From the IMG/VR virus record IMGVR_UViG_3300033407_000036, positions 1 to 44,507 of that record: a DNA stretch of 44,507 nt; one strand, 5' to 3'. The number at the start of each line of letters is the position of its first letter. Position 1 is the first letter of the stretch. The position numbers and the translations under genes are program-made. The stretch comes from a virus. Its lineage: Duplodnaviria > Caudoviricetes. The notes beneath the pieces are model-generated. The model did not search any database and was not told the DNA's origin. It was given only the letters and a program-made list of their open reading frames with translations. Below, piece after piece: positions 3,255-42,295 of this stretch.

Positions 3255-3285
3255 GTGTGGTCCCTTCTTTCGGGGCATTAAGGAC

Positions 3286-8051: not shown

Positions 8052-8557
8052 CAGGCGGCCTCCTCGCACCGGCCGTAAACCCTGAAGGCGCTCCGAGGAA
8101 AGAACACCATCCCGGCCCAGCCCATCTTCGGGCCTTCGTAGAATCGAGCTCCTTTCGACAGCACGTCGAGCCGTTCGCAGAGAACCAGCCCGTCATCCTC
8201 CTCGACCACGAACAGCCACACCGGACATCCGCTGATCGCCTGCACCTGTTGATAGTGCTCGTAATGGCGTTTGCTGATGCCGTGCTCTAACCGGCCGGTT
8301 TTTCTGTGCAGTGTAGCGGCGCCTTTGGTCTTAACCTCCACCCAATAGCGCGAACCATTCTTGCTCACGTCCAAGTCTGGCAGCACGTAGGATACGCGCG
8401 CCCCCTCCATCTTCGGGGCCTTGTTGCCGTCCTCGCCGGCATAGTCGTAACTCGGCACCACGAAGCAGCCGCGCTCCTGAACCATCGTGGCAACGACCCG
8501 CTCCCCAGAGCGGCCGCGCAGAAAATTGTCACTCGCGCGGAAAGCGGCGTCAGACAT
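8051..8557 (-). CDS. PD-(D/E)XK nuclease-fold protein
   Basis: GRSGERVVA...LPDLDV...WVEVKTK pattern. Confidence 0.7.
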   Translation of the reverse strand: MSDAAFRASDNFLRGRSGERVVATMVQERGCFVVPSYDYAGEDGNKAPKMEGARVSYVLPDLDVSKNGSRYWVEVKTKGAATLHRKTGRLEHGISKRHYEHYQQVQAISGCPVWLFVVEEDDGLVLCERLDVLSKGARFYEGPKMGWAGMVFFPRSAFRVYGRCEEAA

Positions 8558-9460
8558 CTAAGCCTCGCCGCGCCACGGAAAGGCAACAAACCCGATCTTG
8601 CTGAACCGCTCCGCAAAGGCGGCAGCGTCGGTGCCGAAGTAGAAGAACGCCTGCCCCTGCGTCGGAGCGGCGACGGCCCCGCTATCATCATAGAACTTCA
8701 CCCTGCCCCTGGTGAAGCAGATGGCGTCAGCTACGGCCGCGGCGCCGTGAAACCATGACGTGTCGGTGTAGTTGTGGGTAAGCATGACGCCGGCAGAGAC
8801 GCGGCCAGACAGCCGCTCGTCCACCATCTTGTTGACGAACTCGGCTATGAGCGGCTGCGCATACGGAGGGTTGAGCCAAACACGACCGTTCCACTCCTGC
8901 CGAAGCCCGTCCGTGTCTTTGGTGAAGAAGGCACCGGCCTTAACTACGGCCTGCGCCGCCTCGCTGGAGGCGGGGTCCAAGTCGATGCCGCCCATCACCT
9001 CCCGGGCGGCTTCAACCAAGTTGCTGGGTGTGTACCACTCGTTTTCGCCGGTTCCGCTGGCGCCGCGGAGGTCCGTCTGGCCCTTTTCGGCCATGGCCTT
9101 TCGCCATGCGGCGCCGAACAGAACGGTCCGGTACTTCTCGCGGTCCTGTAGGCGCTTTCCCCATTTGGAGACCTGCTGATGAGTTATGCCGGTTGAGTTT
9201 TCGGCATCCTCCACGAAATAGCCACGACCTGCGCTATTTGCCCTTTCGCCCCTGCCGCGGACATTTTCCTTCCACCATCGGACGAACTCGGCCTGTTCCT
9301 CCATCTTGGCCTCAACTGCCTGTTCAAGCAGAGGCCAATCATGGATGCGCCTCGCAAAGTCGATGAGCGCATCGGCTTTCGCGTCGTTCTCTTTGACGAG
9401 CGACGGCTCAAAAGTAGAGACCGAACGCCCGGTTTGTGCTATTGAAACAGGCACATTCAC
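8558..9460 (-). CDS. Phage Dam-like DNA N6-adenine methyltransferase with an N-terminal extension
   Basis: NEWYTP, IDLDPAS, DGLRQEW and VWLNPPY motifs; about 135-aa helical/HTH-like N-terminus. Confidence 0.88.
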   Translation of the reverse strand: MNVPVSIAQTGRSVSTFEPSLVKENDAKADALIDFARRIHDWPLLEQAVEAKMEEQAEFVRWWKENVRGRGERANSAGRGYFVEDAENSTGITHQQVSKWGKRLQDREKYRTVLFGAAWRKAMAEKGQTDLRGASGTGENEWYTPSNLVEAAREVMGGIDLDPASSEAAQAVVKAGAFFTKDTDGLRQEWNGRVWLNPPYAQPLIAEFVNKMVDERLSGRVSAGVMLTHNYTDTSWFHGAAAVADAICFTRGRVKFYDDSGAVAAPTQGQAFFYFGTDAAAFAERFSKIGFVAFPWRGEA

Positions 9461-9831
9461 TTCAGCCGCGCCTTCCGAATCTTCGCAGCCAGAGCCGAAG
9501 CTTCAGCCGCCAAATCCTGAAAATCATCTGCGTCACCCTTGGCCGCCTCGACCGTGAGTTCGTGCTCCAGGTTCCGCAGTTCCCGCTCGCAAAAATGGAG
9601 GTAGGCGTTGCGGACTTGCTGGAAGACATGAACTGCGACGGTCTTGGGGCGACGATATCGAAAACCCCAAATTGTCCAGTAATTGATGCCCGTCTTGGCC
9701 TCCAGGCGGCGCATCGCATCTTCAACGTCGCCCGGCCCGGTAGCTTCACGCTTCACCATCCGGTCGCAGTATTCCGCAGCCAGATCGACGCTACTCATTT
9801 GCTCGAACTCCAAACGCGGCTTGAGCGACAT
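9457..9831 (-). CDS. CII-like DNA-binding regulator
   Basis: GPGDVEDAMRRLEAKTGINYWTIWGFRYRRPK HTH-like segment; position downstream of cro. Confidence 0.6.
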   Translation of the reverse strand: MSLKPRLEFEQMSSVDLAAEYCDRMVKREATGPGDVEDAMRRLEAKTGINYWTIWGFRYRRPKTVAVHVFQQVRNAYLHFCERELRNLEHELTVEAAKGDADDFQDLAAEASALAAKIRKARLK

Positions 9832-9849
9832 GCAACTTCTCCTCGTCCA

Positions 9850-10290
9850 TGTTCCGGGACGAAGAGAGCCCCTGACCCGGTGTGCTTGCCGGCTCGAACG
9901 GGTGGGGCGAGGCTTTGGAAACTGGTCGGGCAGCGAGACGACGCGCGCGCCTGGCTGGGTTTGGGACGGAGGACGGCAAAGCGCCCGCGGGAGGTCCGTT
10001 CCGCTGCCCGAGAGGTGGAGAATTCGATGGCTTCGCTTCCTTGACGGGTTCGATGACACGGCACCTGGCAGCGCCGCCGGCCGGACCCGCCTGACCGTTG
10101 GTGAGAACAGAGGAAGCGCGTGGTACCCGGCCCGCCATCCTGGGCCCCGGGGGAATTGTCCGGCCGTTGCGAATAGGTGACGGCGAGTGCCGGGTGAGGA
10201 ACAGCACTCGCCGTCTGACGCCACCAGAGCGATGGCGCCGGCCCGCCGCCGGGGGGTGAGGAGCGGCGAGAGAAATGGGGATGATGGATG
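9850..10290 (-). ncRNA. Putative structured leader or sRNA with anti-SD-like hairpin loops
   Basis: About 450 bp without a convincing ORF. Stems at 10179-90/10204-15 (12 bp), 10244-49/10263-68 and 9926-35/10002-11. The first two loops read UCCUCACCC on the minus strand. Confidence 0.45.
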
Positions 10291-10293
10291 AAG

Positions 10294-10935
10294 TCATGCG
10301 GCGGCCCGTACCCGGTCAGGCCGGTTCGCTTCGAAGACGGCGCGGGCGAAGCCGCGGGGCGTTTCAGCCCGGGTGTCCGCGCGATCGTCGGATGGGGTTG
10401 CCTTGTGGATGCGGTCGTCGGGCGGGTCCAGGTGGAGCGCAAGGCGCCGCGCCGGCATGACGAAGCCGTTGCCGGTCCACAGACAGGTCCGCTTGGTGTA
10501 GTTGTCGTCCGCGCACCAGCCGGCATACTCGAAGGGATGGAAGGTATGGTCGGCCTCGCCCATGTGCTTCGCGAGAGCGCCGACCGGGTTCTCGACCATG
10601 TACGGGGCGCCGGACCACGCCGCGGCCATCCGGCAGGCGGCGAAAAGCTCAAGGGCATCGGAGAGAAGGAAAAGGCCCTTCTTCTGCCAGTCCCGGGCGC
10701 CAGAACCCGCTACGTCGGTGCATGGCGGCTCTGCCGAGACGAAGGCGATATCGATGCCTTCCGGCGGGCACCAGGAGCGGGCGTCGCCCCAGACGAAATG
10801 AATGTTGCCCTCGACCCGGTCCTTCCGGATGGAGTGCTGCACGTCCACGCAGAAGCAGCGGTAGCCAGCTTCGGCCCAAGGCTCGGCCATCCGGCCGGAG
10901 CGGTGGCAAAGGAAGATGGCTGCTCCCCCGGACAT
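10294..10935 (-). CDS. Phage Dcm-like DNA cytosine methyltransferase
   Basis: PPCT catalytic motif, MVENPVG, and YTKRTCLW...RAETP motifs. Confidence 0.8.
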   Translation of the reverse strand: MSGGAAIFLCHRSGRMAEPWAEAGYRCFCVDVQHSIRKDRVEGNIHFVWGDARSWCPPEGIDIAFVSAEPPCTDVAGSGARDWQKKGLFLLSDALELFAACRMAAAWSGAPYMVENPVGALAKHMGEADHTFHPFEYAGWCADDNYTKRTCLWTGNGFVMPARRLALHLDPPDDRIHKATPSDDRADTRAETPRGFARAVFEANRPDRVRAAA

Positions 10936-29641: not shown

Positions 29642-30903
29642 TATGGAAGCTCCCGAAAGCGGACGCCCGGCGCGATCTCGACCCAGCCGTCCTCACCCTC
29701 GCGCGGTCCACCCAGACGGGCGCGGTTGCGGGCGATCTCCGCCTTGGTGTCCCGGATGACGCGGTCGAGCTTGGCCTTGAAGGTGATCGGGTCGTCGTCC
29801 TTGTTCGGCAGGGCCGCGATGAGCCGCACCGCTTCCTCCGGCGAGATGGCCGCGCCTGACATCTCATGCAGATATTCGTTCATGTTGGCCGCGGTCGTGG
29901 CCTGCCATGTCGCATAGTCTTCGAGTTTAGCCGCTTCCTCCGGCGGCAAAGACCCAGTGAGCCACGCGCGCCAACTGCGGATGGTGTTGCCGGCCTGCCC
30001 CCAGATCGTGGCATATTCCGGCTTGAAGGACCGCTCAATCTCAGTCAGCCCGGCGAGCGCATCCTCGGCACTGATGATAGCCTTCTGCACGCCGGTCGTG
30101 GTGGTTGGGGTAAGGTCAGCACCCGCTCCCTGCCGGAACTCGAACTGGCCGGTGTCCTGATTGAAGCTGATCGCCATGCCGCTGGGGGCCTTCGGGCCGC
30201 TGGCAGGGACAAAGCCCCGCTCGTCGGCGTCAGGGTCGTTCGGCATGTAGAGCGCCGGATACGGCATCCCCTTTTCGTCATTGAGGGTGTAGAGTTTCGG
30301 GCCGTCTGCGCTCGCCGTGGCTGGCACGCTGGCAATTGGAGCACCGCCTGGTCCGAACCGAGTTTGACCTGGGCTGAGCGTGTACCCGCTATCCTCTCCT
30401 CCGGGCACGCTGGCCAGCGGCCGACCGTCTGGGCCGAACCTGGTCTGGCCAGGGCCGAGGGTGAACGGGTCGGGCTGCTCCGCCGGCTTCATCGCCTCGA
30501 CGATGGCAGCCTGAGCCACTTCCGGGAGGGCAGACAGGCCGGTGTCCAGCCCGTAATTCTGGAGCACCGTGGCCAACGCCTGTTCCCGCTTCCGCCGCAG
30601 TTCCGCTTCGGTGCGCTCCTTGTTCCGATAGGCGTCGGTGGCCCTGCCTGAGGCCAAGCCTTGCATGGAGGCTTCGACAGCCTGCTTTCGGGTCTGGGCC
30701 AGGAGCAAGGGAAGGCCGAAGCCCATGAGGGCGGCGGAGCGGTCCCGGAGGAAGTTCTTTACCCTCGGCAGGCCCGGCTGGGGGCGGAGCGAGGCGAGGA
30801 TGCCGCCGGGCTGGCCGAAGGCTCCGAGAAGCCCCTGGCGCTCCTCCTCTCCGCGAGGGGCCAGCACTCCTGCGTATCCGGCGTCATTACCGTATCTGGG
30901 CAT
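29641..30903 (-). CDS. DNA ejection/transfer protein with a two-copy internal repeat
   Basis: FTLGPGQTRFGPDGRPLASVP / YTLSPGQTRFGPGGAPIASVP; C-terminal SGAAISPEE motif. Confidence 0.75.
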   Translation of the reverse strand: MPRYGNDAGYAGVLAPRGEEERQGLLGAFGQPGGILASLRPQPGLPRVKNFLRDRSAALMGFGLPLLLAQTRKQAVEASMQGLASGRATDAYRNKERTEAELRRKREQALATVLQNYGLDTGLSALPEVAQAAIVEAMKPAEQPDPFTLGPGQTRFGPDGRPLASVPGGEDSGYTLSPGQTRFGPGGAPIASVPATASADGPKLYTLNDEKGMPYPALYMPNDPDADERGFVPASGPKAPSGMAISFNQDTGQFEFRQGAGADLTPTTTTGVQKAIISAEDALAGLTEIERSFKPEYATIWGQAGNTIRSWRAWLTGSLPPEEAAKLEDYATWQATTAANMNEYLHEMSGAAISPEEAVRLIAALPNKDDDPITFKAKLDRVIRDTKAEIARNRARLGGPREGEDGWVEIAPGVRFRELP

Positions 30904-30911
30904 GGCTATCC

Positions 30912-30940
30912 TTGCACGGAGTCGGCAGAAATGCTAGGGT
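30912..30940 (+). promoter_or_regulatory. Putative sigma70 promoter of tRNA-like RNA copy A
   Basis: cTTGCAC-N17-TAGGGT with TG at the extended -10; predicted +1 near 30946. Confidence 0.6.
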
Positions 30941-30945
30941 TTTCG

Positions 30946-31124
30946 TTCTGGCGAGCGGCGTGGAAAGCAGACACGCTGCGGAGAGCGATCACCAAGGGCA
31001 GCCGCCGGTCCACCAAACTCGGCGCGAATGATCGGATAAGGCCGCGCAGCGGGATGGGGGTGGTACCCCGAACGTCGCGTGGAAACCGTCTGCCCAGCGG
31101 GAGTAGCGCCCCGCCTCGCCTGAC
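30946..31124 (+). ncRNA. tRNA-like structured RNA, copy A
   Basis: GGCGAG/CTCGCC closing stem, GCGTG-GAAAGCAGA-CACGC arm, GGGCAG/CTGCCC domain and GCGGG-AGTAGCGC-CCCGC arm. Ends are shared with copy B. Confidence 0.75.
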
Positions 31125-31987
31125 TACACATAGCCCCGCTGCGGCTGCCGGCTGGCAAGGATGCCCCCGGACGGCGTGTTCACCCCCTGCTGGTCGCCCA
31201 TGAAGCCGCCGAGCAATCCAGCAATGCCGGTCACGCCACCAAGAATCTGCTGCCACAGCGGCACCGGAGGCTCTTGCGTCTCTGTCGTTCCGTAGGGCGC
31301 TCCGGAGCCGAGGATGCCCGCATACTGGCGGTTAACATCGTCCCGCGGGTCCCATGTCCTCAACTGGTCGAGGATGGGCTGCAGGGCGATCTGGCGGGCC
31401 TGGGTATCGCCGTAGCTGTTGAGGACGCCCTGCCGCAGCCCGAGGGCGTTCTGATAGAGCCCCTGCCTGCCTTGCTGGGCTCCTTCGATGGAGTTCGCCG
31501 CACCGATCTGCCGGTCCCGCTCCGCCTGGTAGTTCTGGTTGAGGATGCCGCTCCGAATGCCGCCAACGGTGTTGACGAAGTCCTTATCCATCGCCCCCGA
31601 AAAGCCGCGCCCGGCAGCGGAATACATGCTCTTGAGGGAGTTGACGGCCGGGTCTACGGCGCTCTGAATGACGCCTTCGAGGTGCGGCGAGCCGTTGAGA
31701 TATTCGCCCTTTGCGGTACCGGTCAGGTAGTTCTCCGCCGCGCCGGACTGTAGGGCCTGACCGCCGGCTCTAGCGGTATCGGCGAGGAGCCCCTGGTAAT
31801 AGGGCGCGGTGGTAATGCCGAGGCCGGCTACGTTCCTTCCGGGAACCTGCCCACCGGGAAAGCGGGCCATGTTCTGGTTGTAGACGTTGCCGGCGCCGCC
31901 AAAGAGGTTCTGGAGCGGCTCCTGGATTGGCCCCCACGGCTCGGAGATCGTCTTGCCGGTGGTTTCGAGTTCGTTGTTGCCGGCCAT
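31124..31987 (-). CDS. DNA ejection protein (gp7-like position)
   Basis: EPWGPIQEPL, YLNGSPHL, AAGRGFSG and NYQAERDRQ; Gly-rich hydrophobic C-terminus. Confidence 0.75.
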   Translation of the reverse strand: MAGNNELETTGKTISEPWGPIQEPLQNLFGGAGNVYNQNMARFPGGQVPGRNVAGLGITTAPYYQGLLADTARAGGQALQSGAAENYLTGTAKGEYLNGSPHLEGVIQSAVDPAVNSLKSMYSAAGRGFSGAMDKDFVNTVGGIRSGILNQNYQAERDRQIGAANSIEGAQQGRQGLYQNALGLRQGVLNSYGDTQARQIALQPILDQLRTWDPRDDVNRQYAGILGSGAPYGTTETQEPPVPLWQQILGGVTGIAGLLGGFMGDQQGVNTPSGGILASRQPQRGYV

Positions 31988-31995
31988 GGTATTTC

Positions 31996-32024
31996 CTTGT
32001 CGGGAATCGGCTGGTTTGGTATGT
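31996..32024 (+). promoter_or_regulatory. Putative sigma70 moron promoter
   Basis: TTGTCG-N17-TATGTT, then GGAGG and ATG 32046. Confidence 0.55.
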
Positions 32025-32045
32025 TTGGCGTTCACGGAGGAAGCT

Positions 32046-32237
32046 ATGATCGCTCGCCGCTACACTGCCGATGAGGTCGATTCGATGCGGGTGGCGCTAC
32101 TCGTGAGCAGTCGGATATCGGACGCACAGGTGCTCGAAGAAACGCTCCGGACCTACATCATCGCCGGGGTCGATCCGGAGGAGTTGCTGGAACGCGCTCA
32201 TCAGCCGCCCGCAGCGGTCACGCTGGACGCTGCCTAA
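32046..32237 (+). CDS. Hypothetical protein (antisense moron)
   Basis: Own promoter and RBS; LEETLRTYIIAGVDPEEL. Confidence 0.7.
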   Translation: MIARRYTADEVDSMRVALLVSSRISDAQVLEETLRTYIIAGVDPEELLERAHQPPAAVTLDAA

Positions 32238-32653
32238 AGAGACTTTGTCAACTGGATGGTCGGCCGCTCCCGATAGCCCGGAAGCACCTTCTGCCACCCC
32301 GCCCGTGAGCCGGGCTCGATCAGGATTTCAGTGCAGCCGTTGAAGCGGCCGTAGTTCTCTAGCTCTTGAAGCAGATGAAGCCAGCGGTGACGCTGCTTCC
32401 CTGCCAGCCACCGGATGGCGAGCACCCTTTTGCCCGAGGCCTTGATTAGTATCTTGGTCCCTGCGGCCGCCCAGATGCGGCGAGTGTCCGGGTCCAAAGC
32501 TACCCAGATTTTGAGATAGTCGCCGCGGGCCTGCCGCAGGGTCTCGTTTACGGGCCAGTCATCCGGGAAGCGGGACGCCATCTGTTCGGCGAAGGGGAGG
32601 ATGATCGGCCACCACCGCTCCAGCGCTTCGAGCGGAACGGGATACAGGATCAC
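32234..32653 (-). CDS. Virion assembly protein (P22 gp14-like position, GNAT-like)
   Basis: LAIRWLAG...LENYGRFNGC...GSRAGWQKVL; GTGA overlap with the upstream gene. Confidence 0.7.
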   Translation of the reverse strand: MILYPVPLEALERWWPIILPFAEQMASRFPDDWPVNETLRQARGDYLKIWVALDPDTRRIWAAAGTKILIKASGKRVLAIRWLAGKQRHRWLHLLQELENYGRFNGCTEILIEPGSRAGWQKVLPGYRERPTIQLTKSL

Positions 32654-32886
32654 GCCGTCGCTGGTTCCCGCCATTTCAGGTGGTTGCGGGTATAAACGAC
32701 CCACAGGGCGAGGTTCATCGGCAGAAGGCCCCACGAAGCGGAGGCGATAATCCAGATGAGCCAGAGCAGTTGACTGAAGAGACCAACCGCCCAAGTGTGT
32801 TTCTTCTTGCTCCCGGCTAGAAACATCGTATAGATTGTTATAGCTGAAAGCAGCCACGGAAGATAGGCCGCGACGACATTCTGCAT
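32650..32886 (-). CDS. Three-TM membrane protein, PnuC-half/SemiSWEET-like
   Basis: Three hydrophobic helices; WAVGLFSQLLWLIW; C-terminal LKW. Confidence 0.65.
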   Translation of the reverse strand: MQNVVAAYLPWLLSAITIYTMFLAGSKKKHTWAVGLFSQLLWLIWIIASASWGLLPMNLALWVVYTRNHLKWREPATA

Positions 32887-32895
32887 GAATTCTCC

Positions 32896-33300
32896 TTACC
32901 CCGGCTTCATCACGTGCCAACCGAAAGTCTTGTCCGAGTTGGCGTCGTTGGCGTGGGTGATGACAAACTGGCCCTTGGTGGTGGTCGCGGTGTAGATCGA
33001 GCCAGCGCCGAACTCAGCCGCGGCATTGGCCGTCCGGGGGAACAGGAAGGCGTAGCCGTCAGCCGGGATTTCGTCCTTCGTGACAGTCGTGGATGCTGCA
33101 TTGGCCGTGAGCGTCACCGTCCCGGTGACGACGTTCTGACCCTCGGTAGACTGGCGTATGGTGCCGGCGTGTTCGGCCAGTCGCTTCGACAGTTCCTTGA
33201 GGGCGACCTGAGCCTGTGCAGCGAAAGAGATAAGGTCCGGGAGGGAACTACCGGGATGGCGCTGCGGGACGTTGACCGGGGAGAGCGGGGGGCGGTTCAT
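32896..33300 (-). CDS. Putative tail needle/structural protein
   Basis: Helical N-terminus plus TGTVTLTANAASTTV...FVITHAN; follows the gp10-like gene. Confidence 0.7.
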   Translation of the reverse strand: MNRPPLSPVNVPQRHPGSSLPDLISFAAQAQVALKELSKRLAEHAGTIRQSTEGQNVVTGTVTLTANAASTTVTKDEIPADGYAFLFPRTANAAAEFGAGSIYTATTTKGQFVITHANDANSDKTFGWHVMKPG

Positions 33301-33461
33301 TCGCTGTAATACCGCTCCGGATTGTCAACCTCGTAGTTGGACAGGACGCAGTGCTCATCCCGGGCGCGCATGAACGCCAGCGCCTTCTCCTCCGTCGAGA
33401 AAACGTGCGTATCGAACGAGGTCGCGCCTCGGAGCACCTGAACAATCCAGACGGTCATCAT
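33297..33461 (-). CDS. Hypothetical protein (54 aa)
   Basis: Translated by hand: MMTVWIVQVLRG...VFSTEEKALAF; ATGA overlaps at both ends. Confidence 0.6.
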   Translation of the reverse strand: MMTVWIVQVLRGATSFDTHVFSTEEKALAFMRARDEHCVLSNYEVDNPERYYSE

Positions 33462-34906
33462 CTCAGCCCCAGCGGTGCAACATCCATCGGCCCGAGTTCA
33501 ACGCCCCTTGCGTGGCTCCAGGATGCCCCGGCAGCGACCTTCACGCCCGCGCGGTGGTATCGCCCACCCTTCCTGAGCGGAACCCGTCCTGAGGCCTGTA
33601 GCGCGGCGTAGGAGCCATACGAGACAGACCCCGCCATCCGCTCCCGCGACCCCACCCTCGCCGTGGTCAGTGCCCCGGTATCCCCGTCGATCAGCGGGCG
33701 GCAGCCCATGACCATCGCCCTGCGTCCCTCGATCGGGTCTTTCTCGGTCGTCTCGAGAAGGGCCTCCATATTGGAGCCCTCGTAGAACGCCAGCTTGTGG
33801 TCGTCGCTGAACACCGAGAACACCTGGCGCCCGCCTTCCCAAACCCGGGAGTCCAGCGAGGGCGTCACGTCCTCAAGCGTGGCAAACAGGGCATCGAGAC
33901 CTTCCAGCGTAACGCCCGGCGTGGCGGCGTCTCCGATGAAGGTCACGTCATCGACTACCTGGCTCCACCGATCTGTGGAAGGGGAGTAGATCAGCTGCCA
34001 GTCGAAGGGCACGCCGTCGCCGGTATGGAAGGCCCAGCGGAACAGTCTCCGTTCAGGATCGAATCCACCCATTGTAGCGAAAACACGGTCGGTATTCACT
34101 AGATTGAGGAAGTAGTTATCGACCTTTTCCTTGCCGATAGGCTGGTCGTTGAAGTAGAAGCCGTCCTCAGCCAGATAGGCGATGCTGTCCCCTACCTGGA
34201 TAACCGAAGCGGGCGCGATGGTGCCTCTTGCATTGGCGATGTGCTCGAAGGCAAAGACGAGGCTCGATCCCGGCTGATGCGCCATGAAGCGGACGGCGTT
34301 CTGCTGGATGATGCGCTTTGCTGCGCCGCAGATCGCCATGACGGGGCCGCCGTCGGGGAAGGTCTGGGTATCCGAGTTCCCGGTGCTCCAGTTCGTCGGG
34401 TCGAGGGTGTCGCACCAGGTGATGGCGTTCTGATCGGAGGCAAGACAGCCAAGGACCAGATACCCCTCCACCACTCCGATATGCCGGGCCTGAGGAGGGG
34501 AGCCGGCGACGTTGGCGAACGCCGTCCCGGAGTCGATGTCGATCCTCTGGAGGGCGTCGTTCTCGTTGGTGGCGTAGAGGAACCCGTCGAAGGCCGCGAA
34601 GCCCCAGTTATGGTCCTCCGCGGGGCCGTTATAGGCGCCTGAGCCGAGGGACACATCGGCCCAGGTCAGGTCGGAGTCGAGGAGCCAGAGCTTGGTCTGG
34701 GTGGCGGCAAAGACGCGGGTGGCGCCGCTTGAGGTCTGGACAGAGACGAAGCCGCGGCAGGGGCCGGTGAGGGCAGCGGAATAGGCGGATTGGCTCTTGT
34801 GGGGAGCGTAGCCTACGGAGGTCGGATAGACGTTGCGGATGTTCTCGGAGTAGCCGGTTGCGAGTGTCGCGACATCGGGGCGGAACTCAGCGAAGGGGAG
34901 CTTCAT
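33458..34906 (-). CDS. Tail hub / DNA stabilization protein (P22 gp10-like)
   Basis: 482 aa, beta-propeller-like composition; synteny. Confidence 0.8.
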   Translation of the reverse strand: MKLPFAEFRPDVATLATGYSENIRNVYPTSVGYAPHKSQSAYSAALTGPCRGFVSVQTSSGATRVFAATQTKLWLLDSDLTWADVSLGSGAYNGPAEDHNWGFAAFDGFLYATNENDALQRIDIDSGTAFANVAGSPPQARHIGVVEGYLVLGCLASDQNAITWCDTLDPTNWSTGNSDTQTFPDGGPVMAICGAAKRIIQQNAVRFMAHQPGSSLVFAFEHIANARGTIAPASVIQVGDSIAYLAEDGFYFNDQPIGKEKVDNYFLNLVNTDRVFATMGGFDPERRLFRWAFHTGDGVPFDWQLIYSPSTDRWSQVVDDVTFIGDAATPGVTLEGLDALFATLEDVTPSLDSRVWEGGRQVFSVFSDDHKLAFYEGSNMEALLETTEKDPIEGRRAMVMGCRPLIDGDTGALTTARVGSRERMAGSVSYGSYAALQASGRVPLRKGGRYHRAGVKVAAGASWSHARGVELGPMDVAPLGLR

Positions 34907-35112
34907 GCGTCGAGCCTGTTCGAGAGGCGGACTGCACTAGCAACTGCCGTCATCTTCGGAAGCGTCTCCAGTGCCTCGGCAAGCGTGTTGAAGCGCATCC
35001 CGGTGAGGCATCCGTCATCGTTGTTGTCGAACGCCGCAACGACCCAGCCGCCGTTGCGGCTCTTGCGGATGTCGATGCGCTCGATGAGGCCGGGGGGCTT
35101 CGGGCGTTTCAT
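34903..35112 (-). CDS. Hypothetical protein
   Basis: Coupled; IDIRKSRNGGWVV. Confidence 0.6.
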   Translation of the reverse strand: MKRPKPPGLIERIDIRKSRNGGWVVAAFDNNDDGCLTGMRFNTLAEALETLPKMTAVASAVRLSNRLDA

Positions 35113-35777
35113 CAGTCCCCCGTCGTGTAGTTGAACGGCCACCGCCGCCCGAGAAGCGCAACATCCACCCGGAGCGGAGCGCGCACCGACTGACTCTCCA
35201 GCCAGACCACGTCATCCAGAGCCCGGTCGAAACGGGCCTGGTATTTGACCAGCGCGTTGTCATCCATCTCATAGTCGGCCGCCTCGACAAGGGAGCCGTA
35301 GAGGTAGACGTCCGGGTAATTCGTCAGGAGCCAGTTGGGGTCAGATGCGCCGCCGGCCGACAGGTCGAACAGCTTTTTCCGGTAGAAGAACCTGAACGTG
35401 TGAGCGCTGTCGGCAAGCTGGTCGAGTTCGATGTTCCCAGCGTTGATGGCCCACTGCCTCGGGGGGCCGGAGGTGGTGTGGAGTTCCATCACCCCAGGCT
35501 GGATGCGAGCTAGTTCGGTTTCGTCCCCGTCCGTTGTCAGGAACAGGGCGTAGGCTTCGAGGAAGTCGCTGGGGAGGGTGATGTTGCGGGAGGCCGGCGT
35601 GGCCGTCAGGGTAGCATCGTTGACGCGGGAGAGCCGCACCGGGGCGATGCGGTTGAGCTTGTTTTCAGCGATGCGGATGAAGTCAGGCGTCAATGCTTCG
35701 TAATCAGAAACTCCGACGCGCTCCCGGCGCTCTGCGATGGCGGTCTGCAAGGTCGCGTAGCTGGTCGGGTAAGTCAT
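35112..35777 (-). CDS. Head-tail adaptor protein
   Basis: SYATLQTAIA, PDFIRIAENKLNR, LPSDFLE and NWLLTNYPDVYLYGSL. Confidence 0.85.
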   Translation of the reverse strand: MTYPTSYATLQTAIAERRERVGVSDYEALTPDFIRIAENKLNRIAPVRLSRVNDATLTATPASRNITLPSDFLEAYALFLTTDGDETELARIQPGVMELHTTSGPPRQWAINAGNIELDQLADSAHTFRFFYRKKLFDLSAGGASDPNWLLTNYPDVYLYGSLVEAADYEMDDNALVKYQARFDRALDDVVWLESQSVRAPLRVDVALLGRRWPFNYTTGD

Positions 35778-37135
35778 GCCGCCACCTGTCGAATGAGGTC
35801 CACGATCCGCTCTGTTGCCTTGCCGTCCAGCTTGCCCCAGCGCTCCCCGTCGCTAGACGTCAGTCTCTTCGGAAGCCTCTGGAGCGCTCCAAGAAATCCC
35901 GCATGATCTGTAACAGTCTCGACAGAAGGGACATGTCTGAAATCCGAATAGCCGTAGCCGAACACGTCGTAATTAATCACCGGGACGCCGCAGGAGATCG
36001 CCCACCGGATGGTTGCCGAGGCAAACCCGACATAGGCATCGCACAGCGCCACCAGATACGAGGTCGGCAGCGTCGTGAACGGGATGCCTTCCAGCGCCAC
36101 GAGGTTGCCCAAGGGCAGGAAGTTCGGATGCGGGCGGAACACCACGTTGTATTGCTCTTGGAGCGGCCTCAGGGCCAATCCTAGCGCCTTGGCGAGGGCT
36201 TCCATCGAACGATAGACGAAGCGCGGGCAGATCCCGGACTGGTTCGGACAGCCGCCAACCACCAGAAGGGGCTTGGAAGAGTACAGCCCGAGTTGCTTGT
36301 CCAGCACCTTCCGGCGCTCTGCCTTGTCGCCCCTGAGTTCCGCCAGTTCGTCGTCATAGACCGCGCCGACTACCCTGAGCCTGGAAGAAGGCACTCCGGA
36401 CACCCGGTAGTAGTCCCGCATCGCCTCGCTCTCGACGGCGATGGCATCGGCCCAGCCCGAGCAGAACATCCACGGATCGGGCGGAAGGCATTTCGTCAGC
36501 CAGTGCCCGACGACATGGCCGGCAGGAAGCCTCATGATACGACGGCCGTCCTGTTCCATCACCCACTCGGGGAAGAACCAGGCGATGACGCGGTTGAGGC
36601 CCTTGACCTGCACCCATGGGAACATGACGAGGCTTCGGAATGCTTCCTGCTCGTTGCAGATGGTATAGGGCAGGACGATGCTGGGGACGCCTTCCAGATG
36701 CCCCGCCTTGATGAAGACCGGGGTGACCATCCCCGCCACGTCCTCGGGGAGAATGATGACATCGGGCTTCTGCGCCCGGATCACGTCCCGATAGGCTTTG
36801 AGCAGATCCCGGTAAGCCTTGGTGAGATTGAAGAGCGGCCTGACCTTGTGCCAGATCGCGGTGAGCCTGCCCTCGATGCTGCGGCGTGGGACCATCCGAG
36901 TCGGGGGAGCATCTGGATCGTCCGAGACTTCCCGGTTGAAGTAGATGGCCTTTTCGATGGTGCCGTTGGCTTCGAGGGTGTTGAGTTCCGCCTCCACCGC
37001 CTGATCCTCGGGCTTGGTGGAATTCATGAAGTTATAGACGATGGAGATGCGGAAGCCGCGGTTACGGAGCGCCAGTGCGGCCCTCATCATTTCCGTATAG
37101 TCAGAGGGTCGCTGCGCTACTACCAGCGCCTTCAT
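35774..37135 (-). CDS. GT-B glycosyltransferase, sialyl/Kdo-transferase or CDP-glycerol transferase-like
   Basis: KPDVIILPED, FRPHPN, and CDAYVGFASATIRWAISCGVPVINYD...DGKATERIVDLI. Confidence 0.75.
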   Translation of the reverse strand: MKALVVAQRPSDYTEMMRAALALRNRGFRISIVYNFMNSTKPEDQAVEAELNTLEANGTIEKAIYFNREVSDDPDAPPTRMVPRRSIEGRLTAIWHKVRPLFNLTKAYRDLLKAYRDVIRAQKPDVIILPEDVAGMVTPVFIKAGHLEGVPSIVLPYTICNEQEAFRSLVMFPWVQVKGLNRVIAWFFPEWVMEQDGRRIMRLPAGHVVGHWLTKCLPPDPWMFCSGWADAIAVESEAMRDYYRVSGVPSSRLRVVGAVYDDELAELRGDKAERRKVLDKQLGLYSSKPLLVVGGCPNQSGICPRFVYRSMEALAKALGLALRPLQEQYNVVFRPHPNFLPLGNLVALEGIPFTTLPTSYLVALCDAYVGFASATIRWAISCGVPVINYDVFGYGYSDFRHVPSVETVTDHAGFLGALQRLPKRLTSSDGERWGKLDGKATERIVDLIRQVAA

Positions 37136-37431
37136 GCAGTACCCACGAAGCGGCGAATGGACTCCTTCATCGCCTCGGCGCTGTTGTTGACGCTCTCGGG
37201 GCTCTGGCCTTCACCTAAGGCGTCAAGCTGCCCGGCGAGCATACGCAGCGATTCCGCGAGGTGCTTGGCGCGGTAGCCGTGGCCGCGGTCGTTGTACGGC
37301 TTGCTAGGGAATGACCCCTCGCGCGGCATCGAAACGACGGCGCAGACCCGCTTCCCGGCGGCCAGATCGACTACATCAAGACATTCGGCGTCGTGCGTGA
37401 TGTCGTACCAGTTCCGCAGCCAGACGATCAT
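37132..37431 (-). CDS. Hypothetical protein
   Basis: Coupled ORF. Confidence 0.6.
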   Translation of the reverse strand: MIVWLRNWYDITHDAECLDVVDLAAGKRVCAVVSMPREGSFPSKPYNDRGHGYRAKHLAESLRMLAGQLDALGEGQSPESVNNSAEAMKESIRRFVGTA

Positions 37432-37715
37432 GCGGCCCGCTCCATCTTCCGATAAACGCCCATGTCCTCGTCCACCGCTTCGAACTCATGTGCTATGGAA
37501 GCCTGAGCCGGAGGGGACGTGCCGAACTCCTCGTACAGAGCCCGCATTTCGGCCCTGTGGCGCTTGATGCGCCGGCCCTCACCAATGAACCGGAAAAACA
37601 GGAACGGCTGCTGCAGGGCAACCTTGGCCATTCCAGCCACATGCCCGAGGCCGACCATTGCCAGCCAGGCGAGGATGACGGTGTAGAACGGATGGGTGAG
37701 AGCGAAGTCTACCAT
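37428..37715 (-). CDS. Hypothetical membrane protein
   Basis: N-terminal TM; coupled. Confidence 0.55.
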   Translation of the reverse strand: MVDFALTHPFYTVILAWLAMVGLGHVAGMAKVALQQPFLFFRFIGEGRRIKRHRAEMRALYEEFGTSPPAQASIAHEFEAVDEDMGVYRKMERAA

Positions 37716-37969
37716 GTGACCTCGCTCGGTTCGTCGGATGCACGCGGCGGCTTAGGAAGCGGCATCCAGTGGGTCGGATCGCGCCAAGAAAACTCGCCGT
37801 CAGCATTAATACCGGTCTGTGCCCACACCCATCCGCGCTCGCGTCTGCCATGATAGCCCCAGTAGATCACCCTGATCTCGGCTGGCCAGATCTCCGCCGC
37901 TGGGAAGTAGCCGAGGATTTTAACTCGGTGATCGTGCGGAGCCGTCTCTATCGGCTGCCAGTCGCTCAT
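37709..37969 (-). CDS. DUF551-like protein
   Basis: MSDWQPIETAP...PTHWMPLPKPP. Confidence 0.8.
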   Translation of the reverse strand: MSDWQPIETAPHDHRVKILGYFPAAEIWPAEIRVIYWGYHGRRERGWVWAQTGINADGEFSWRDPTHWMPLPKPPRASDEPSEVTW

Positions 37970-38817
37970 GCGGCTTCCTCCTGCGGAGTAGCGGCGATGT
38001 TGTCCGCCACGGCCTGACTTACCCATTCCAGCTCGTAGTCGTGGCCGTACTCGATCATCTGCCGAAGCAGGCCGCCCGATAGTTCCGAAAACACCTTCGC
38101 CCCATGCCCGGGGTTGTGCTCCTGTTCCATGTGAAACAGGGTCGAAAGCTCCTCGGCCTGTTTCAAAAAGTCCGGCGCGGTCAGAAAACTCTCGCCTCCG
38201 AGCGAGACGACGATCTCCTCGGGTCGCGGCTCGTGGCGATAGGCGTGCGTCTCGCCCCGCGGATACGAACTCTCGCAGCCGTAGAACACCACCTGCTTGA
38301 AGCCCAGCGTAAACCCGGTCATCGGAGTGGCGGTGGCCGTTGTAGAACCAGCGCCGATGATCTTTCCATGGGCACAGTCGAAAGTGGTAATATCCGCCCC
38401 GCCTTCCAGCAGGGTATCGAACACCGCCGGGTCGCACTGGGAGGCAACCACCGCCCACCTTGCCCCCTTGGCGAACTCGGCAACTTCGGGGAGCGCATCG
38501 CAGGTGAAGAACACCGCTACGATGCCTTCCGAGCGAAGCCACGAACAGGTCCCGTTGATCGCCCACACATCGCCACGGACAGGCTGCATCGAGGCGTAGC
38601 GGGTTTTGTACGGCTCCCGGTAGTCGGTGATCCCACGATAATGGTCGGTATAGCGGCGAGCGGACGGGCCGCCCCCAACGATGTGAAGAATGCCCGACCG
38701 CGTGCCCGTCCGGTCCTGGACCGTGGGAAGGCCCAAGGACCGGCAATAGGCGATATTGGCGTCGAGACGATCGGCCGGGACGACCGGCCGACCGATGAGG
38801 TTCAGCTTCATCCTCAC
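37966..38817 (-). CDS. Maf/DUF115-like (CstII-type fold) glycosyltransferase-like protein
   Basis: LHIVGGGPS, VWAING, ASQCDP and GSTT...LGFKQVVFYGCESSY. Confidence 0.75.
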   Translation of the reverse strand: MRMKLNLIGRPVVPADRLDANIAYCRSLGLPTVQDRTGTRSGILHIVGGGPSARRYTDHYRGITDYREPYKTRYASMQPVRGDVWAINGTCSWLRSEGIVAVFFTCDALPEVAEFAKGARWAVVASQCDPAVFDTLLEGGADITTFDCAHGKIIGAGSTTATATPMTGFTLGFKQVVFYGCESSYPRGETHAYRHEPRPEEIVVSLGGESFLTAPDFLKQAEELSTLFHMEQEHNPGHGAKVFSELSGGLLRQMIEYGHDYELEWVSQAVADNIAATPQEEAA

Positions 38818-39092
38818 GCAGCGGCTTCAATGGACGGCGACGGCGGCTGTGCGTCACTCGCCGGGTTGCCGTCGGGGTCCAGTATCTCGGGATACCGGAT
38901 GCGCTCGTCGCCGGGCGGCCAGCCGAGGCGCTCGTGCTCCGACTTACAGAGCGCATAGGCCACCTCGTGAGCCACGGCGTGGTTGTCGAACACGCCGTGC
39001 GACTCTACGCCAGCGGCGCCGTCCGCCCTCTTGTAGAAGCGCGTAACAATGAACCGGGCCACCGGGCGCACCCGGTACTCGATCTTTTCCAT
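38814..39092 (-). CDS. Hypothetical protein
   Basis: GGAG RBS; IEYRVRPVARFIVTRF. Confidence 0.7.
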   Translation of the reverse strand: MEKIEYRVRPVARFIVTRFYKRADGAAGVESHGVFDNHAVAHEVAYALCKSEHERLGWPPGDERIRYPEILDPDGNPASDAQPPSPSIEAAA

Positions 39093-39143
39093 GTTAGTCT
39101 CCGTGAGGAAGATACCGGAGAGACCGCTCCGGCTCGGTTAGCT

Positions 39144-39416
39144 TCACGAAGTGGACGGCCAGATGCCCAGATTGACCAGGGTGTTCCTGACCGAGGTCAT
39201 GAACGCCGTGACATCCGCCACCTGGGCAGAGGACGAATAGCCGTAGTTGCTGCCGCCCGAGAGGGCGGTGAGCGCCGTGAGCTTCGCCCCGGAGATCGCA
39301 GCCGAGTAACTGAACTGCGCGACCGGGGTGCCGCCGTAGACGGCAAGGAGGTCGCTGGCGGACTGTCCCAGAAGGGTGCCGTCCGGGCCGCCATCGGAGA
39401 GTTGCTTGGTAGCCAT
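39144..39416 (-). CDS. Putative capsid decoration protein
   Basis: DGTLLGQSASDLLAVYGGTPV...NTLVNLG; directly after the coat gene. Confidence 0.65.
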   Translation of the reverse strand: MATKQLSDGGPDGTLLGQSASDLLAVYGGTPVAQFSYSAAISGAKLTALTALSGGSNYGYSSSAQVADVTAFMTSVRNTLVNLGIWPSTS

Positions 39417-39440
39417 TGTGGGTTCTCCTCAGATGGCGGG

Positions 39441-40697
39441 TTAGGACAGGTCGGCCGCAGTGGACGCGCGGACGGCCTGGCGGGGGTCGATGGTGTCCAC
39501 CCCGTACAGGACATCGAGGCGCCACGAGGACTCGTCGTTGGTGCCGTCGTAGTAGGGGATGACGCGGACGCTGTAGCCTTTGTAGCTACGCCGGCCGACG
39601 TCCACCGCGCCCGGCGGCTTCACCATCGGGACCATGGTCAGGGCGAAGGCATTCTTCCGGAAGTAAAGGCTCTCCCGGAAGGCAGTGCTTGCAGTCCCGC
39701 GCCAGGTCACCGTGTTGTCGTCAATGTCGGTGCCGGTGGAGAGACTGACGGTCTGGTGCGCCCCCGACATGATCAGCGGCGGCCAGATCGAGATGTCACC
39801 CTCGTTGCTCGCCATCGTGGCGTCGGCCATGACGGTGAACATCTTCAGGTGCGCAAGGGCCTCCTTGCTCACCGGGTCCACGTCGTAGACATCCGAGATC
39901 GTGAAGGTATCGCCCTTCTTGATCGTGGCCGTAGCCGGGTCGGTGCCGTCGATGTGGAGGGTGACCGAGGTCGAGTCCTTGTACAGCGCCCAGGTGTGGG
40001 TGCCATCGACGAGGGTCTGATCCACAAGGTCGGTCGCAAGGCGCGAGCCGTAGGTATGAACCGGAGTGTTCTGCGACATGTAGGTGTCGATGCCGGCGAC
40101 CATGCCGAGCTCACCCTGGCGGTATGCCTGGTTGGCAGGACCGTTGATGAACAGGCCGGTGGTCGATCCGACAAAGGCCCAGTAGTCGGCGGGGCTCAGC
40201 ACCGCCACCCGGTCATCCTGGGGGATGGCCATTACGTCCATCCGCTCCGGCGCCAGCGCGAAGTCGGCGAAGGAGTTGATGCCGCCTGACGGGATCGTGA
40301 CGTGGTTCGGAATCTTGTAGTATTCCGACATGATGTCCCGATCGATGTGGTTCACCAGTTGGATCATCGCCGGCTTCAGCACACGATCCGACAGATCCCC
40401 GATCTGGAGAGTGAGCTGCTCGGAAGTGAACTTGAAGTCGATGCCGCGCTGGAGATCGACGGTGACGGGAATCTTGCCTTCCACAACGTCCTGAATGGAC
40501 GCGGTAGCGCCCGTGCGGACGGTGAAGTCGGCAGGGCGGCGGATCGAGATCGTTTCGCCCTTCTTGTACCCGTTGATGTTGCCGTCGAACTCGGACTCGT
40601 AGCCGCGATAGACAAGTTTGCCCATCACGCAGTTGTTTTCGAGGATCTGCACCGCCTCCTTGGCGATGATATCCGCGGTAAGGGTAGTGTTGGCCAT
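39441..40697 (-). CDS. Major capsid protein, P22 coat (gp5) family
   Basis: MANTTLTADIIAKEA, KGETISIRRP, KGDTFTI and RLDVLYG. Confidence 0.92.
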   Translation of the reverse strand: MANTTLTADIIAKEAVQILENNCVMGKLVYRGYESEFDGNINGYKKGETISIRRPADFTVRTGATASIQDVVEGKIPVTVDLQRGIDFKFTSEQLTLQIGDLSDRVLKPAMIQLVNHIDRDIMSEYYKIPNHVTIPSGGINSFADFALAPERMDVMAIPQDDRVAVLSPADYWAFVGSTTGLFINGPANQAYRQGELGMVAGIDTYMSQNTPVHTYGSRLATDLVDQTLVDGTHTWALYKDSTSVTLHIDGTDPATATIKKGDTFTISDVYDVDPVSKEALAHLKMFTVMADATMASNEGDISIWPPLIMSGAHQTVSLSTGTDIDDNTVTWRGTASTAFRESLYFRKNAFALTMVPMVKPPGAVDVGRRSYKGYSVRVIPYYDGTNDESSWRLDVLYGVDTIDPRQAVRASTAADLS

Positions 40698-40710
40698 GAT
40701 GTCCTTCTGG

Positions 40711-40778
40711 CGGGCTCAGAAGCCCGCACTGGGATAGGCGGCGTCTCACGACGCGGCCGTTGACGGGATGCCTCCCGT
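40711..40778 (-). promoter_or_regulatory. Hairpin cluster in the coat gene leader, including GCGTC-GTGA-GACGC
   Basis: Three adjacent hairpins; the GNRA hairpin recurs as GCGTC-GAGA-GACGC at 41707-20 upstream of the scaffold gene. Confidence 0.5.
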
Positions 40779-41672
40779 TCAGCCCTTCTCCCCCGCCCTG
40801 CGACGGCGCACGTATTCGTCCATCGACAGGTTGGAGTCGGTGAGGGGGCGCTTGGCCCCGGGGCTGCTGCGCGTGGCCACTCGATCCATCGCCACGGGGG
40901 CGGGGACGGACGGCTTGGGCGCGTCGGTCGGCTGTGGCTTGGAGGATTTCGCTTCGAGCCAGTCTCGGTGAAGCAGCCGGTAGTTCTTCGGGCTAATCAG
41001 TTGGACAAGTTCGTCTCTGGTGTAGCCGAGGTCTTCTACGGCGTAGCGTTCGAGTTCCTGGTCAAGCTGGGGCGTCCAGCCCTTGATGTTCTGTTGTGCC
41101 CACTGAGCGGTTTCTGCGGCGCGCTTGGCAGTCTCCTGCTGCGCTGTCGCTGTCCGTTCCTGGGCCTTCGTCTCCAGCGTGGCCTCAAGATTGCTCTTGA
41201 AGTCCTTGAGCTGCTGGTAATGCCGCCAGCCGCGCTGAGCGGCGTTCGGGTCCTGCTGTTCCCAAGTGTCCCAGTCCGCCTGAGCGTACTGTTCCAACTG
41301 GGCCTCGGCCGCGGCGAGCTGGCCGAGTTCCTTGCGGTATTCCGTGTAGCCCTTGGCCTGCTGTTCGAGCGTCTGCTTTTCGCTCTCCAGTGCCTTGCGC
41401 TGCTCGGCTACCTCCTGGGTCTTGCGGGTATAGTCGGCCTGCCGAAGCCATCCCTCCCGCAACTTCTGGGCACCACTCTTGGGGGCAGTGAACTTGATCC
41501 CCTCGTGCTCTAGCTCGTCGTACTCTTCCTCGACCGCATCCTCCGTTTCGGCAGGCTGCGGTGCGTTGAGGTCGCGGGGCTCTTCGGGAGCGGGTGCCGG
41601 GGTGCCCTCCTCGGGCTTGGCCCGGGGATCGCTCTGGACAGCCGATTCCGTTCCCTCGTTTCCGATGGTCAA
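40779..41672 (-). CDS. Scaffolding protein
   Basis: Acidic N-terminus, LRQADYTRKTQEVA, coiled coil and C-terminal SMDEYVRRR; TTG start with strong RBS. Confidence 0.85.
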   Translation of the reverse strand: MTIGNEGTESAVQSDPRAKPEEGTPAPAPEEPRDLNAPQPAETEDAVEEEYDELEHEGIKFTAPKSGAQKLREGWLRQADYTRKTQEVAEQRKALESEKQTLEQQAKGYTEYRKELGQLAAAEAQLEQYAQADWDTWEQQDPNAAQRGWRHYQQLKDFKSNLEATLETKAQERTATAQQETAKRAAETAQWAQQNIKGWTPQLDQELERYAVEDLGYTRDELVQLISPKNYRLLHRDWLEAKSSKPQPTDAPKPSVPAPVAMDRVATRSSPGAKRPLTDSNLSMDEYVRRRRAGEKG

Positions 41673-41750
41673 ATTCTCACTCCTCAGGGGAGGCTGGTGA
41701 AGGTTGGCGTCTCTCGACGCTAATCAACGGTACTCGACGCTAATCGAGCG

Positions 41751-42137
41751 TCAGACGGCGGCGGCCTTGCGCCGATGACGCCATGCGTACACGCGGCATT
41801 TGTCGGAGCAGTAGAGGGCGTGCGAGCAGCGGCCAGTGCCCGTGCCTGTCAGAAAGGTCGTTCCGCAGTGCAAGCAGGCGTGCTGGCGGCGTCCTGTGCC
41901 CTTGACCTCGACCATCTCTCGGAGCGAGGCGACTTCCCCACGCAGTTCGCTGATAAGCTCCATCAGGCTTTGAATGGTGACCGGCCGGCACTGGTCTGCC
42001 AGTTCGTCCGGCGGGCGAAGAGAGAAGGCAGCAGCGCTTGCGGCGGCCGCCATTTCCCGCACCAAGTTGTTAATCCCACCGGGGACCGTGCTCGCGGACC
42101 AGTCGATCTCGGTCAAAGCTAGGCTCTCCACATTCAT
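41751..42137 (-). CDS. Zinc-finger protein (CGNR-like C-terminus) with a tail-fibre-like N-terminal motif
   Basis: CLHCG...YCSDKCRVYAWRHRR; central coiled coil. Confidence 0.65.
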   Translation of the reverse strand: MNVESLALTEIDWSASTVPGGINNLVREMAAAASAAAFSLRPPDELADQCRPVTIQSLMELISELRGEVASLREMVEVKGTGRRQHACLHCGTTFLTGTGTGRCSHALYCSDKCRVYAWRHRRKAAAV

Positions 42138-42155
42138 GCCGCCATGTTGGTGAAG

Positions 42156-42295
42156 TGGTATTCTGACGAGGCGGGACGCTACTCCCGCTTCCTGTCGTTA
42201 AGCGATGCGCTGCAATACGGACTCGGACGCCTTCGCCGACAGGGCACTGTGCTCCGGCCTGCCGCGTGTCTGCTTTCCACGCCGCTCATCAGAAT
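42156..42295 (-). ncRNA. tRNA-like structured RNA, copy B, ending in ACCA
   Basis: ATTCTGATGAG/CTCGTCAGAAT 11-bp stem plus ACCA; same arms as copy A; CCTGTCG/CGACAGG domain. Confidence 0.8.

Follow-up and report, generated by a model that had tools for sequence, protein, structure and literature searches.

The subject of this work is a pair of intergenic elements in a 44,507-nt stretch of DNA (hereafter the window), which is positions 1 to 44,507 of the IMG/VR virus record IMGVR_UViG_3300033407_000036 (Duplodnaviria; Caudoviricetes). The window is a circular-looking contig with a terminal repeat of 195 nt. PHROG matches among 82 hand-picked open reading frames (ORFs) include terminase, portal, scaffold, capsid, ejection protein, integrase and repressor-like proteins, and the window is most likely a temperate tailed phage. 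An earlier reading, made from the DNA letters only (the sequence-only reading), had proposed that two elements, here called copy A and copy B, are copies of a tRNA-shaped RNA with fixed ends and an exchangeable middle. Both elements are present at the places and on the strands that it gave. Their features are as follows.

30946..31124, plus strand: copy A, whole element; antisense to the late operon, flanked by a gene for 420 amino acids and the stop codon of the DNA-ejection-protein gene
30912..30940, plus strand: promoter-like site of copy A (TTGCAC, 17 nt, TG-n-TAGGGT), recognised by eye; predicted start at ~30946-30949
30949..30955, plus strand: 5′ strand of the acceptor-like stem of copy A; partner 31115-31121; 6 bp plus a U.U mismatch; supported by family covariation
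30956..30976, plus strand: CG linker and D-like arm of copy A (5 bp, loop GAAAGCAGA); loop positions 5-6 are predicted to pair with the T loop
30977..31096, plus strand: variable middle of copy A, 120 nt; no relatives among 295 other middles
31097..31121, plus strand: T-like arm of copy A (5 bp; loop of 8 nt, AGUAGCGC) together with the closing stem's 3′ strand, which is not followed by an encoded CCA
42156..42295, minus strand: copy B, whole element; sense in the late operon, 3 nt past the portal stop codon, with an HNH-like gene next
42264..42291, minus strand: 5′ strand of the closing stem of copy B (42291-42285; 11 bp in total), CG linker and D-like arm (42282-42264)
42189..42263, minus strand: variable middle of copy B, 75 nt; no relatives among 295 other middles
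42164..42188, minus strand: T-like arm of copy B (loop AGUAGCGU) together with the closing stem's 3′ strand

The 5′ blocks of the two copies (34 nt, 91% identity) and their 3′ blocks (32 nt, 88%) correspond to the inverted repeats I2 and I5 of the window. The two middles have only a 10-nt gapped local match in common, which agrees with the earlier description of shared ends around unrelated middles. A 15-nt core and an 18-nt T-arm motif each have two exact matches in the window, and a fuzzy scan of the window gave no third copy. The closing stem of copy A consists of 6 bp, a U.U mismatch and 2 bp, and that of copy B of 11 bp; the changes from G-C to A-U and from C-G to U.G between the copies are as had been described. 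The sequence-only reading had called for an Rfam scan: in E-value mode, no named family was found at A or B, and the only match was a weak one to SorX elsewhere in the window. ARAGORN found no tRNA or tmRNA at A or B, the shadow ORFs across copy A (30661-31203, plus strand, and 30906-31256, minus strand) had no PHROG match, and the promoter-like site of copy A was not picked up by a consensus promoter scanner. Folding of the whole elements is modest (z = -1.15 for A and -2.89 for B). It should be mentioned that the minimum free energy (MFE) fold of copy B lacks the 5-bp D arm, which rests there on family covariation. Because folding energy alone is weak evidence, the case for the element rests on comparison.

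By comparison, A and B belong to a widespread family of phage and prophage RNAs, which is apparently undescribed and is missing from Rfam. The exact 19-nt D arm was found in at least 121 viral stretches (about 390 are estimated from 20 of 64 parts), the T arm alone in at least 122 (about 370 estimated) and a 22-nt version of the D arm in at least 119 metagenome stretches (8 of 64 parts give an estimate of about 1,100). When one genome each of 185,579 species was searched, 101 stretches had the exact 19-nt D arm. These records are mainly alpha-, beta- and gammaproteobacteria, with Planctomycetes, Acidobacteria and others, and many are bins of metagenome-assembled genomes. No description of the family was found by motif-string and topic searches in the literature open to full-text search. 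The family motifs are also absent from six supplements of PMC10690425, a search that did not cover its files 1, 2 and 4. Because file 2, as far as that source is available, holds alignments of 8,495 candidate viral RNAs, one arm of the family may be listed there unnamed.

The frame was defined from 222 unique parsed elements, of which at least two are mis-parsed (the second row of locus L288 and the first row of L104). A further 26 exact D anchors were not parsed: two are CRISPR spacers, and the others are truncated, degenerate or have odd loops. From its 5′ end, the frame runs through an acceptor-like stem of 7-9 bp, the linker CG, a D-like arm of 5 bp, the variable middle and a T-like arm of 5 bp. 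Of the 222 elements, 212 have CG as the linker, and 195 have A as the base 5′ of the T arm. The parser demanded the first five closing-stem pairs, and the later pairs were counted in 215 elements: positions 6, 7, 8 and 9 are paired in fractions of 0.96, 0.90, 0.75 and 0.62, respectively. With shuffled partners this fraction is about 0.4 (0.42 at pair 7), and at pair 10 and beyond the pairing of the closing stem drops to near the background level. Among D-stem variants recovered through the T side, most are compensatory, and mutual information is highest at the T-stem and D-stem pairs, the T-stem pairs being the strongest. Across the elements compared, the predicted acceptor-like, D and T stems were all shown to covary. 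The arms are also conserved as such: the exact 19-nt D arm is present in 51 of the 82 T-anchored elements with a strict D arm, in phages of many phyla, and G5 of the D loop is invariant within a 9-nt GAAA context. The T loop has 8 nt of the AGUAGCGH type and is not the canonical 7-nt UUCRA loop. The D loop takes insertions. In L149, L144, L176, L193, L196, L216, L163 and L205 it is a second insertion site, located after the first 5-6 bases, and the insert in L149 resembles a circularly permuted tRNA with a weak, sub-threshold tmRNA match.

The D loop and the T loop covary with each other. When the D side alone was fixed and C was forbidden at D-loop position 6, 32 loci were obtained, and where this position is U, T-loop position 5 is A in place of G. 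Among 262 unique anchors, 209 were parsed and 53 were not. In the 209 elements, D-loop position 6 and T-loop position 5 are C-G in 184, U-A in 21 and G-C, U.G, C.A and G.G in one each (Fisher p = 1.6e-26, kinship ignored). The 21 U-A elements have 19 distinct closing stems. A further 86 metagenome elements gave 84 C-G, one U-A and one C.A; 19 of 105 in this set were unparsed, and two loci identical to the window in place and length were excluded. The pair adjoining the elbow pair changes from G-C to A-U in L505 and L513. No covariation was seen between T-loop position 3 and D-loop position 7; many loci from this search and from the search for the adjoining pair are palindromes that arose by chance and have no D arm. 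Middles with a complement that could kiss the T loop are not enriched (3 of 222 versus 4.9 in shuffles). In tRNA, G19-C56 is the elbow pair between the D and T loops. By analogy, the two-pair Watson-Crick contact between the D and T loops of the family may take the role of this pair. The loop-loop covariation argues strongly that the element functions as a single strand in folded form. Thus, stem covariation and the loop-loop pair bear out the earlier proposal of a tRNA-mimic frame in a modular RNA family: a 7-bp acceptor stem stacked on a 5-bp T stem and D/T loop pairing are the tRNA features found, as judged by covariation and not by structure.

The middles of the 222 elements range from 19 to 286 nt (median about 96), and up to about 290 nt overall. 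Clustering of 295 middles gave 260 clusters, of which 246 are singletons. The middles carry one to six top-level helices, 114 of 215 have 0-2 unpaired nt after the D arm, and no single-stranded region was found at a fixed place in them. Therefore, the 19-20-nt linker followed by a closed domain, which had been described for the window, holds for A and B but is not a feature of the family. Every multi-copy phage examined, the window included, has a different middle in each copy. L049 and L063 have the same stem, with 96% identity over 117 nt upstream and 100% over 36 nt downstream, and their middles (157 and 63 nt) are unrelated. Moreover, the middle of L063 recurs at 96.8% in L278, which has a different stem and different flanks. 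Three other pairs (L106/L226, L282/L309 and L014/L035) have flanks and stem in common and unlike middles. As far as such swap pairs can tell, the middles are truly exchanged between fixed ends, in line with the sequence-only reading, and probably by recombination through the conserved ends. Five contigs of one wastewater run have the same two ends with other letters between them, which may mean that a single sample contained one frame with several middles.

Some middles show constraint or a recognisable source. In a Pseudomonas-type cluster, seven middle pairs have two-sided changes among eight sequences, which are related, so that the changes are not independent. A loop motif, ACCUGA, is kept among 14 middle sequences. 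Canonical T arms occur in 12 of 180 middles, versus 0.4 in shuffles, and look like captured tRNA debris; Rfam tRNA matches lie inside L225 and L109. In general, tRNA matches (ARAGORN or Rfam RF00005) at homologous loci are either neighbours of the element or inserts in its middle. A whole or near-whole tRNA-like sequence is nested in the middle of L225, L109, L302 and L316.

The named carriers are the Pseudomonas phages Persinger, PotUPM1 and Orimi01/Orisa and the Ochrobactrum phage POI1126. The carriers are temperate phages, and the element is often close to repressor and early genes. In bacterial genomes, 36 of 45 loci have a PHROG match at 1e-8 in one of the two longest flanking ORFs, and 23 of 45 have a hallmark phage or integration gene in the flank by reading of the matches (90 of 135 listed ORFs were used). 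No match to the element motif was found in 5,426 E. coli genomes, and the single plasmid match is in a prophage-like plasmid. Because none of 75 portal relatives has an element near the portal within the fetched flanks, the element is accessory. Its orientation to adjoining ORFs is mixed (16/14/13/9 over four classes, n = 52, with crude ORF calls), and gene callers overwrite it with hypothetical proteins. From comparison of the loci, the elements appear to be independent of neighbouring genes. Two CRISPR arrays on bacterial genome contigs, in the regions L285:3973-4002 and L294:3996-4030, contain a spacer matching the element's conserved 5′ block; a single spacer of this kind could be directed against many unrelated phages. 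One middle type (L276, L295, L300, L304, L313 and L328) is common to Ramlibacter and Phenylobacterium genomes. There was no hallmark phage gene in the four flanks tested of this cluster, which is possibly a host-domesticated branch.

From comparison of the elements, the family RNA is probably neither a decoding nor a charged tRNA, since an anticodon arm, an encoded CCA and identity elements are lacking. Anticodon-type hairpins (5 bp, 7-nt YUNNNRN loop) occur in 23 of 180 middles versus 16.6 in shuffles, and six of the 23 are T arms. Together with the 8-nt T loop, this near-shuffle level upholds the sequence-only statement that the elements are not tRNAs, and it does not support the anticodon-nuclease decoy, one of the payloads suggested there, as a general feature. 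CCA is encoded at 74-76 in five of 215 elements and in three of 86 in the further metagenome set. Acceptor pairs 1:72, 2:71 and 3:70 each take all four Watson-Crick types, and no conserved synthetase identity pair was found in 215 elements. As for tmRNA, ARAGORN found none in the window, G3.U70 is present in one of 215 elements, and the match at L149 is the only one, below threshold.

A TA...T hexamer resembling a -10 box peaks at -12/-13 from position 1 (25 of 209 elements; 0-5 at most other offsets). At 16 loci (17 of 213 parses; one locus was parsed twice), ARAGORN detected a tRNA no more than 300 nt away. At 14 of the tRNA-adjacent loci the tRNA flanks the element on the same strand, and at seven it abuts at 1-8 nt; in these tight arrays the neighbouring tRNA encodes CCA and the element does not in six of seven cases. 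Because of the -10-like peak and the tRNA-array setting, the RNA likely comes from its own promoter or is cut from a longer transcript. A run search with homologue L021 gave assembled contigs only. In two RNA-labelled runs the upstream flank was covered at a depth of 2.6-5.3, ending inside a variant element, which is uninformative on expression. Run X1 ("probably DNA") has contigs of 192, 218 and 107 nt with starts at +1, +1 and -1, respectively, and the 218-nt contig ends 11 nt past the T arm; three other runs contributed no contig. We rejected these contig ends as ends of a mature RNA: an assembly graph, with a word length that we take to be 31 letters, would break there if several middles share one frame. 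According to the available part of PMC11143913, RNase P measures 12 bp from the T loop to the 5′ end and binds the elbow by stacking. Maturation of the family RNA by RNase P is plausible from the geometry of the 7+5-bp stack and the tRNA-array setting.

No partner of the RNA emerged from its neighbourhood. No protein family is common to more than 3 of 56 flanks, and when 18 whole genomes were compared, the recurring clusters were just generic HNH and tail ones. No retron reverse transcriptase or toxin gene lies beside the RNA among the 82 window ORFs. An antitoxin role, another suggested payload, is not supported by these neighbourhoods, which have no protein in common. A Y RNA was likewise not indicated, there being no Rfam match and no common neighbour protein in the 56 flanks, in which Rsr was not searched by profile.

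We propose that the family RNA is a stable, uncharged carrier that mimics tRNA, is processed by the tRNA enzymes of the host and bears a swappable, structured cargo with proteins as its targets, and we put the probability of this proposal at roughly 0.45. The element would be transcribed from its own promoter or by read-through. RNase P would then cut at the 7+5-bp stack, and the 3′ end would be trimmed. The mature RNA would gain tRNA-like stability and stay uncharged. Middles would be exchanged by recombination via the 25-30-nt conserved ends, and the cargo would act through its shape, not through long base pairing, on proteins of the host such as defence or RNA-metabolism factors. An exchangeable library of RNA effectors, in which modules slotted by recombination into a tRNA-shaped chassis act as aptamers or decoys that target a host protein (an anti-phage defence enzyme, for instance), is possible but doubtful.

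Several points weigh against the carrier proposal. The middles barely beat shuffles (median z = -0.47; below -2 in 13% of 215), and those of the window fold no better than shuffles (z = 0.37 and 0.02). No transcript, RNA end or processing was seen in the assembled contigs, and no binding partner was found in the flanks and 18 whole genomes. A promoter directly at position 1 would make RNase P unnecessary, and with an 8-nt non-canonical T loop, recognition by RNase P is an assumption. Furthermore, the range from 19 to about 290 nt, the 246 singletons in 260 clusters and the T arms in 12 of 180 middles would fit a tolerant filler equally well.

The main rival is a somewhat unlikely explanation in our estimate: the frame itself is active, as an uncharged elbow decoy for a host tRNA-binding protein, and the middle is tolerated filler. 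Candidate targets would be a tRNA-targeting toxin, a defence enzyme, or a processing or sensing factor. Conservation of the D and T arms in sequence as well as in pairing, across phages of many phyla, speaks for this explanation, as do the tenfold variation of the middles in length, the tRNA debris in them and the tolerance of the D loop for insertions. However, within clusters the middles show conservation and covariation, they are transferred as whole units, and two-copy phages keep different middles.

Alternatively, the element could be a punctuation mark, at which host tRNA nucleases cut to split or stabilise polycistronic transcripts, the released RNA having no job of its own. The position of copy B, 3 nt past the portal stop codon in the late operon, suits this idea. 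Elements also abut tRNAs in arrays, and a ribosome-binding-like site with a start codon follows 10-39 nt downstream in 41 of 210. In contrast, orientation to ORFs is mixed (n = 52), and copy A is antisense to the operon with a promoter-like site of its own. The -10 box peak lies directly before position 1, none of 75 portal relatives has an element beside the portal, and a punctuation mark does not need a swapped middle. We therefore regard punctuation as unlikely.

An antisense RNA of the C4/CI type, whose frame presents short single-stranded guides against phage or host mRNA, corresponds to the guide payload of the sequence-only reading. For the antisense test, elements came from the window and from those 17 of the 20 phage contigs fetched in which parsing succeeded. 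Neither the longest nor the two-block match to the own genome beat shuffled middles at p<=0.05 in any of 20 elements (median p = 0.63 and 0.73), and by count of matches of at least 10 nt, one of 20 did. Seeds under about 9 nt and G.U pairing are below the detection of this test. In host genomes, no match was common across genomes (two middle clusters, five host genomes each). The single 20/20 match occurs in one genome only, in a GC-rich stretch. The middles lack a fixed single-stranded region, and Rfam c4 has no match in the window or in 20 homologous loci. The temperate carriers and the frequent location near repressor or early genes would suit an antisense RNA. Seeds of 6-8 nt and G.U pairing would fall below the power of the test, and two middle clusters only were tried against hosts. 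On balance, the guide is improbable.

Least probable is a selfish cassette at the DNA level, with the conserved ends as recombination anchors and an incidental RNA fold: exchange is precise, distribution is patchy and genome positions are many, but a base pair between distant hairpin loops covaries, the elements are strand-oriented with promoters and tRNA arrays, and no mobility gene is common to the neighbours.

Among known systems, the closest likeness is to RNA2 (32959-33083) and RNA1 (30501-30644) of phage T5, which are annotated as "tRNA-like stable RNA with unknown functions" (GenBank AY543070.1). Both have a closing stem, a 2-nt linker, a D-like arm, an expanded middle without a normal anticodon arm, and a T arm stacked on the 3′ strand, with no encoded CCA directly after the stem. 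RNA2 further resembles the family in its CG linker, its 5-bp D stem and the A that precedes its T arm. However, the T loop of the T5 RNAs is canonical (7 nt, UUC type), their D loops are different, and the 11-kb T5 region contains none of the signature motifs of the family. The T5 RNAs sit in a tRNA cluster, whereas the family elements are mostly solitary in temperate phages, with an 8-nt loop, their own two-pair D/T contact and an exchanged middle. From these sequences, the family would be a variant of phage tRNA-like RNAs, set apart by a re-wired, covarying elbow and an exchanged core, and the concept is not wholly new.

YrlA Y RNAs, found in bacteria and phages, mimic the D arm, T arm and acceptor stem of tRNA; they are bound by and encoded near Ro60/Rsr and are modified by TruB and DusA at canonical positions, and the Mycobacterium smegmatis Y RNA is cut by RNase P (available text of PMC4201824). 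Unlike YrlA, the family has no Rfam match, no common neighbour protein and no canonical T loop. The C4 and P4 CI RNAs are matured by RNase P. Like the family, they are small structured RNAs of temperate phages, although such maturation is a supposition for the family, which differs from them in having no Rfam match, no complementary targets in its own genome and a much longer, exchangeable middle. In Rfam, the C4 antisense RNA of P1/P7 is RF01695 (PMC2864571, as far as available). Allo-tRNAs, in the accessible part of PMC5389517, are also irregular tRNA-shaped genes in mobile or phage settings, and they have anticodon arms and 8/4 or 9/3 acceptor branches and are charged. The family differs from them by its 7(-9)/5 branch, with a 5-bp T stem, and by the lack of an anticodon arm. 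A tRNA shape serves as a processing mark or stabilising frame in mascRNA, mitochondrial t-elements and engineered tRNA scaffolds. These are eukaryotic or synthetic, whereas the family consists of natural phage RNAs with naturally swapped inserts. T4 rnaC was considered as a relative and rejected: it contains two copies of GAGUAGCGU, but both are part of stems in its MFE fold. In T4 rnaD (L347:609-872, rnaC + rnaD), a hairpin loop is complementary to a 6-8-nt motif present twice in rnaC, and these two RNAs might pair with each other.

Other features of the window were also seen. The terminase large subunit is encoded on the minus strand (356-1823) in overlapping ORFs, 356-1150 and 1098-1823, which match different parts of phrog_2; this may be a split gene, a frameshift or an assembly error. 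Three small paralogous ORFs (2174-3824, minus strand) have the C-terminal motif FPEL...P.THW.AP...REARDAYLNR, which accounts for repeats D2, D10 and D11 of the window. Three other ORFs start with WQPIETAP (around 19840, 23790 and 37970). One early region (6484-10935, minus strand) contains a cluster of three DNA methyltransferase genes.

The family provides hundreds of natural variants of a T5-like design, which in the T5 annotation is still without a known function. With a re-wired, covarying elbow, natural swap pairs and the cultured carriers Persinger, PotUPM1, Orimi01 and POI1126, the question of whether frame or cargo is active is directly testable. If the effector-library idea is true, phages would have in such a library an RNA equivalent of their variable anti-defence protein loci. 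An active cargo would make the family an unrecognised class of modular phage RNA effectors and a natural non-decoding scaffold for biotechnology.

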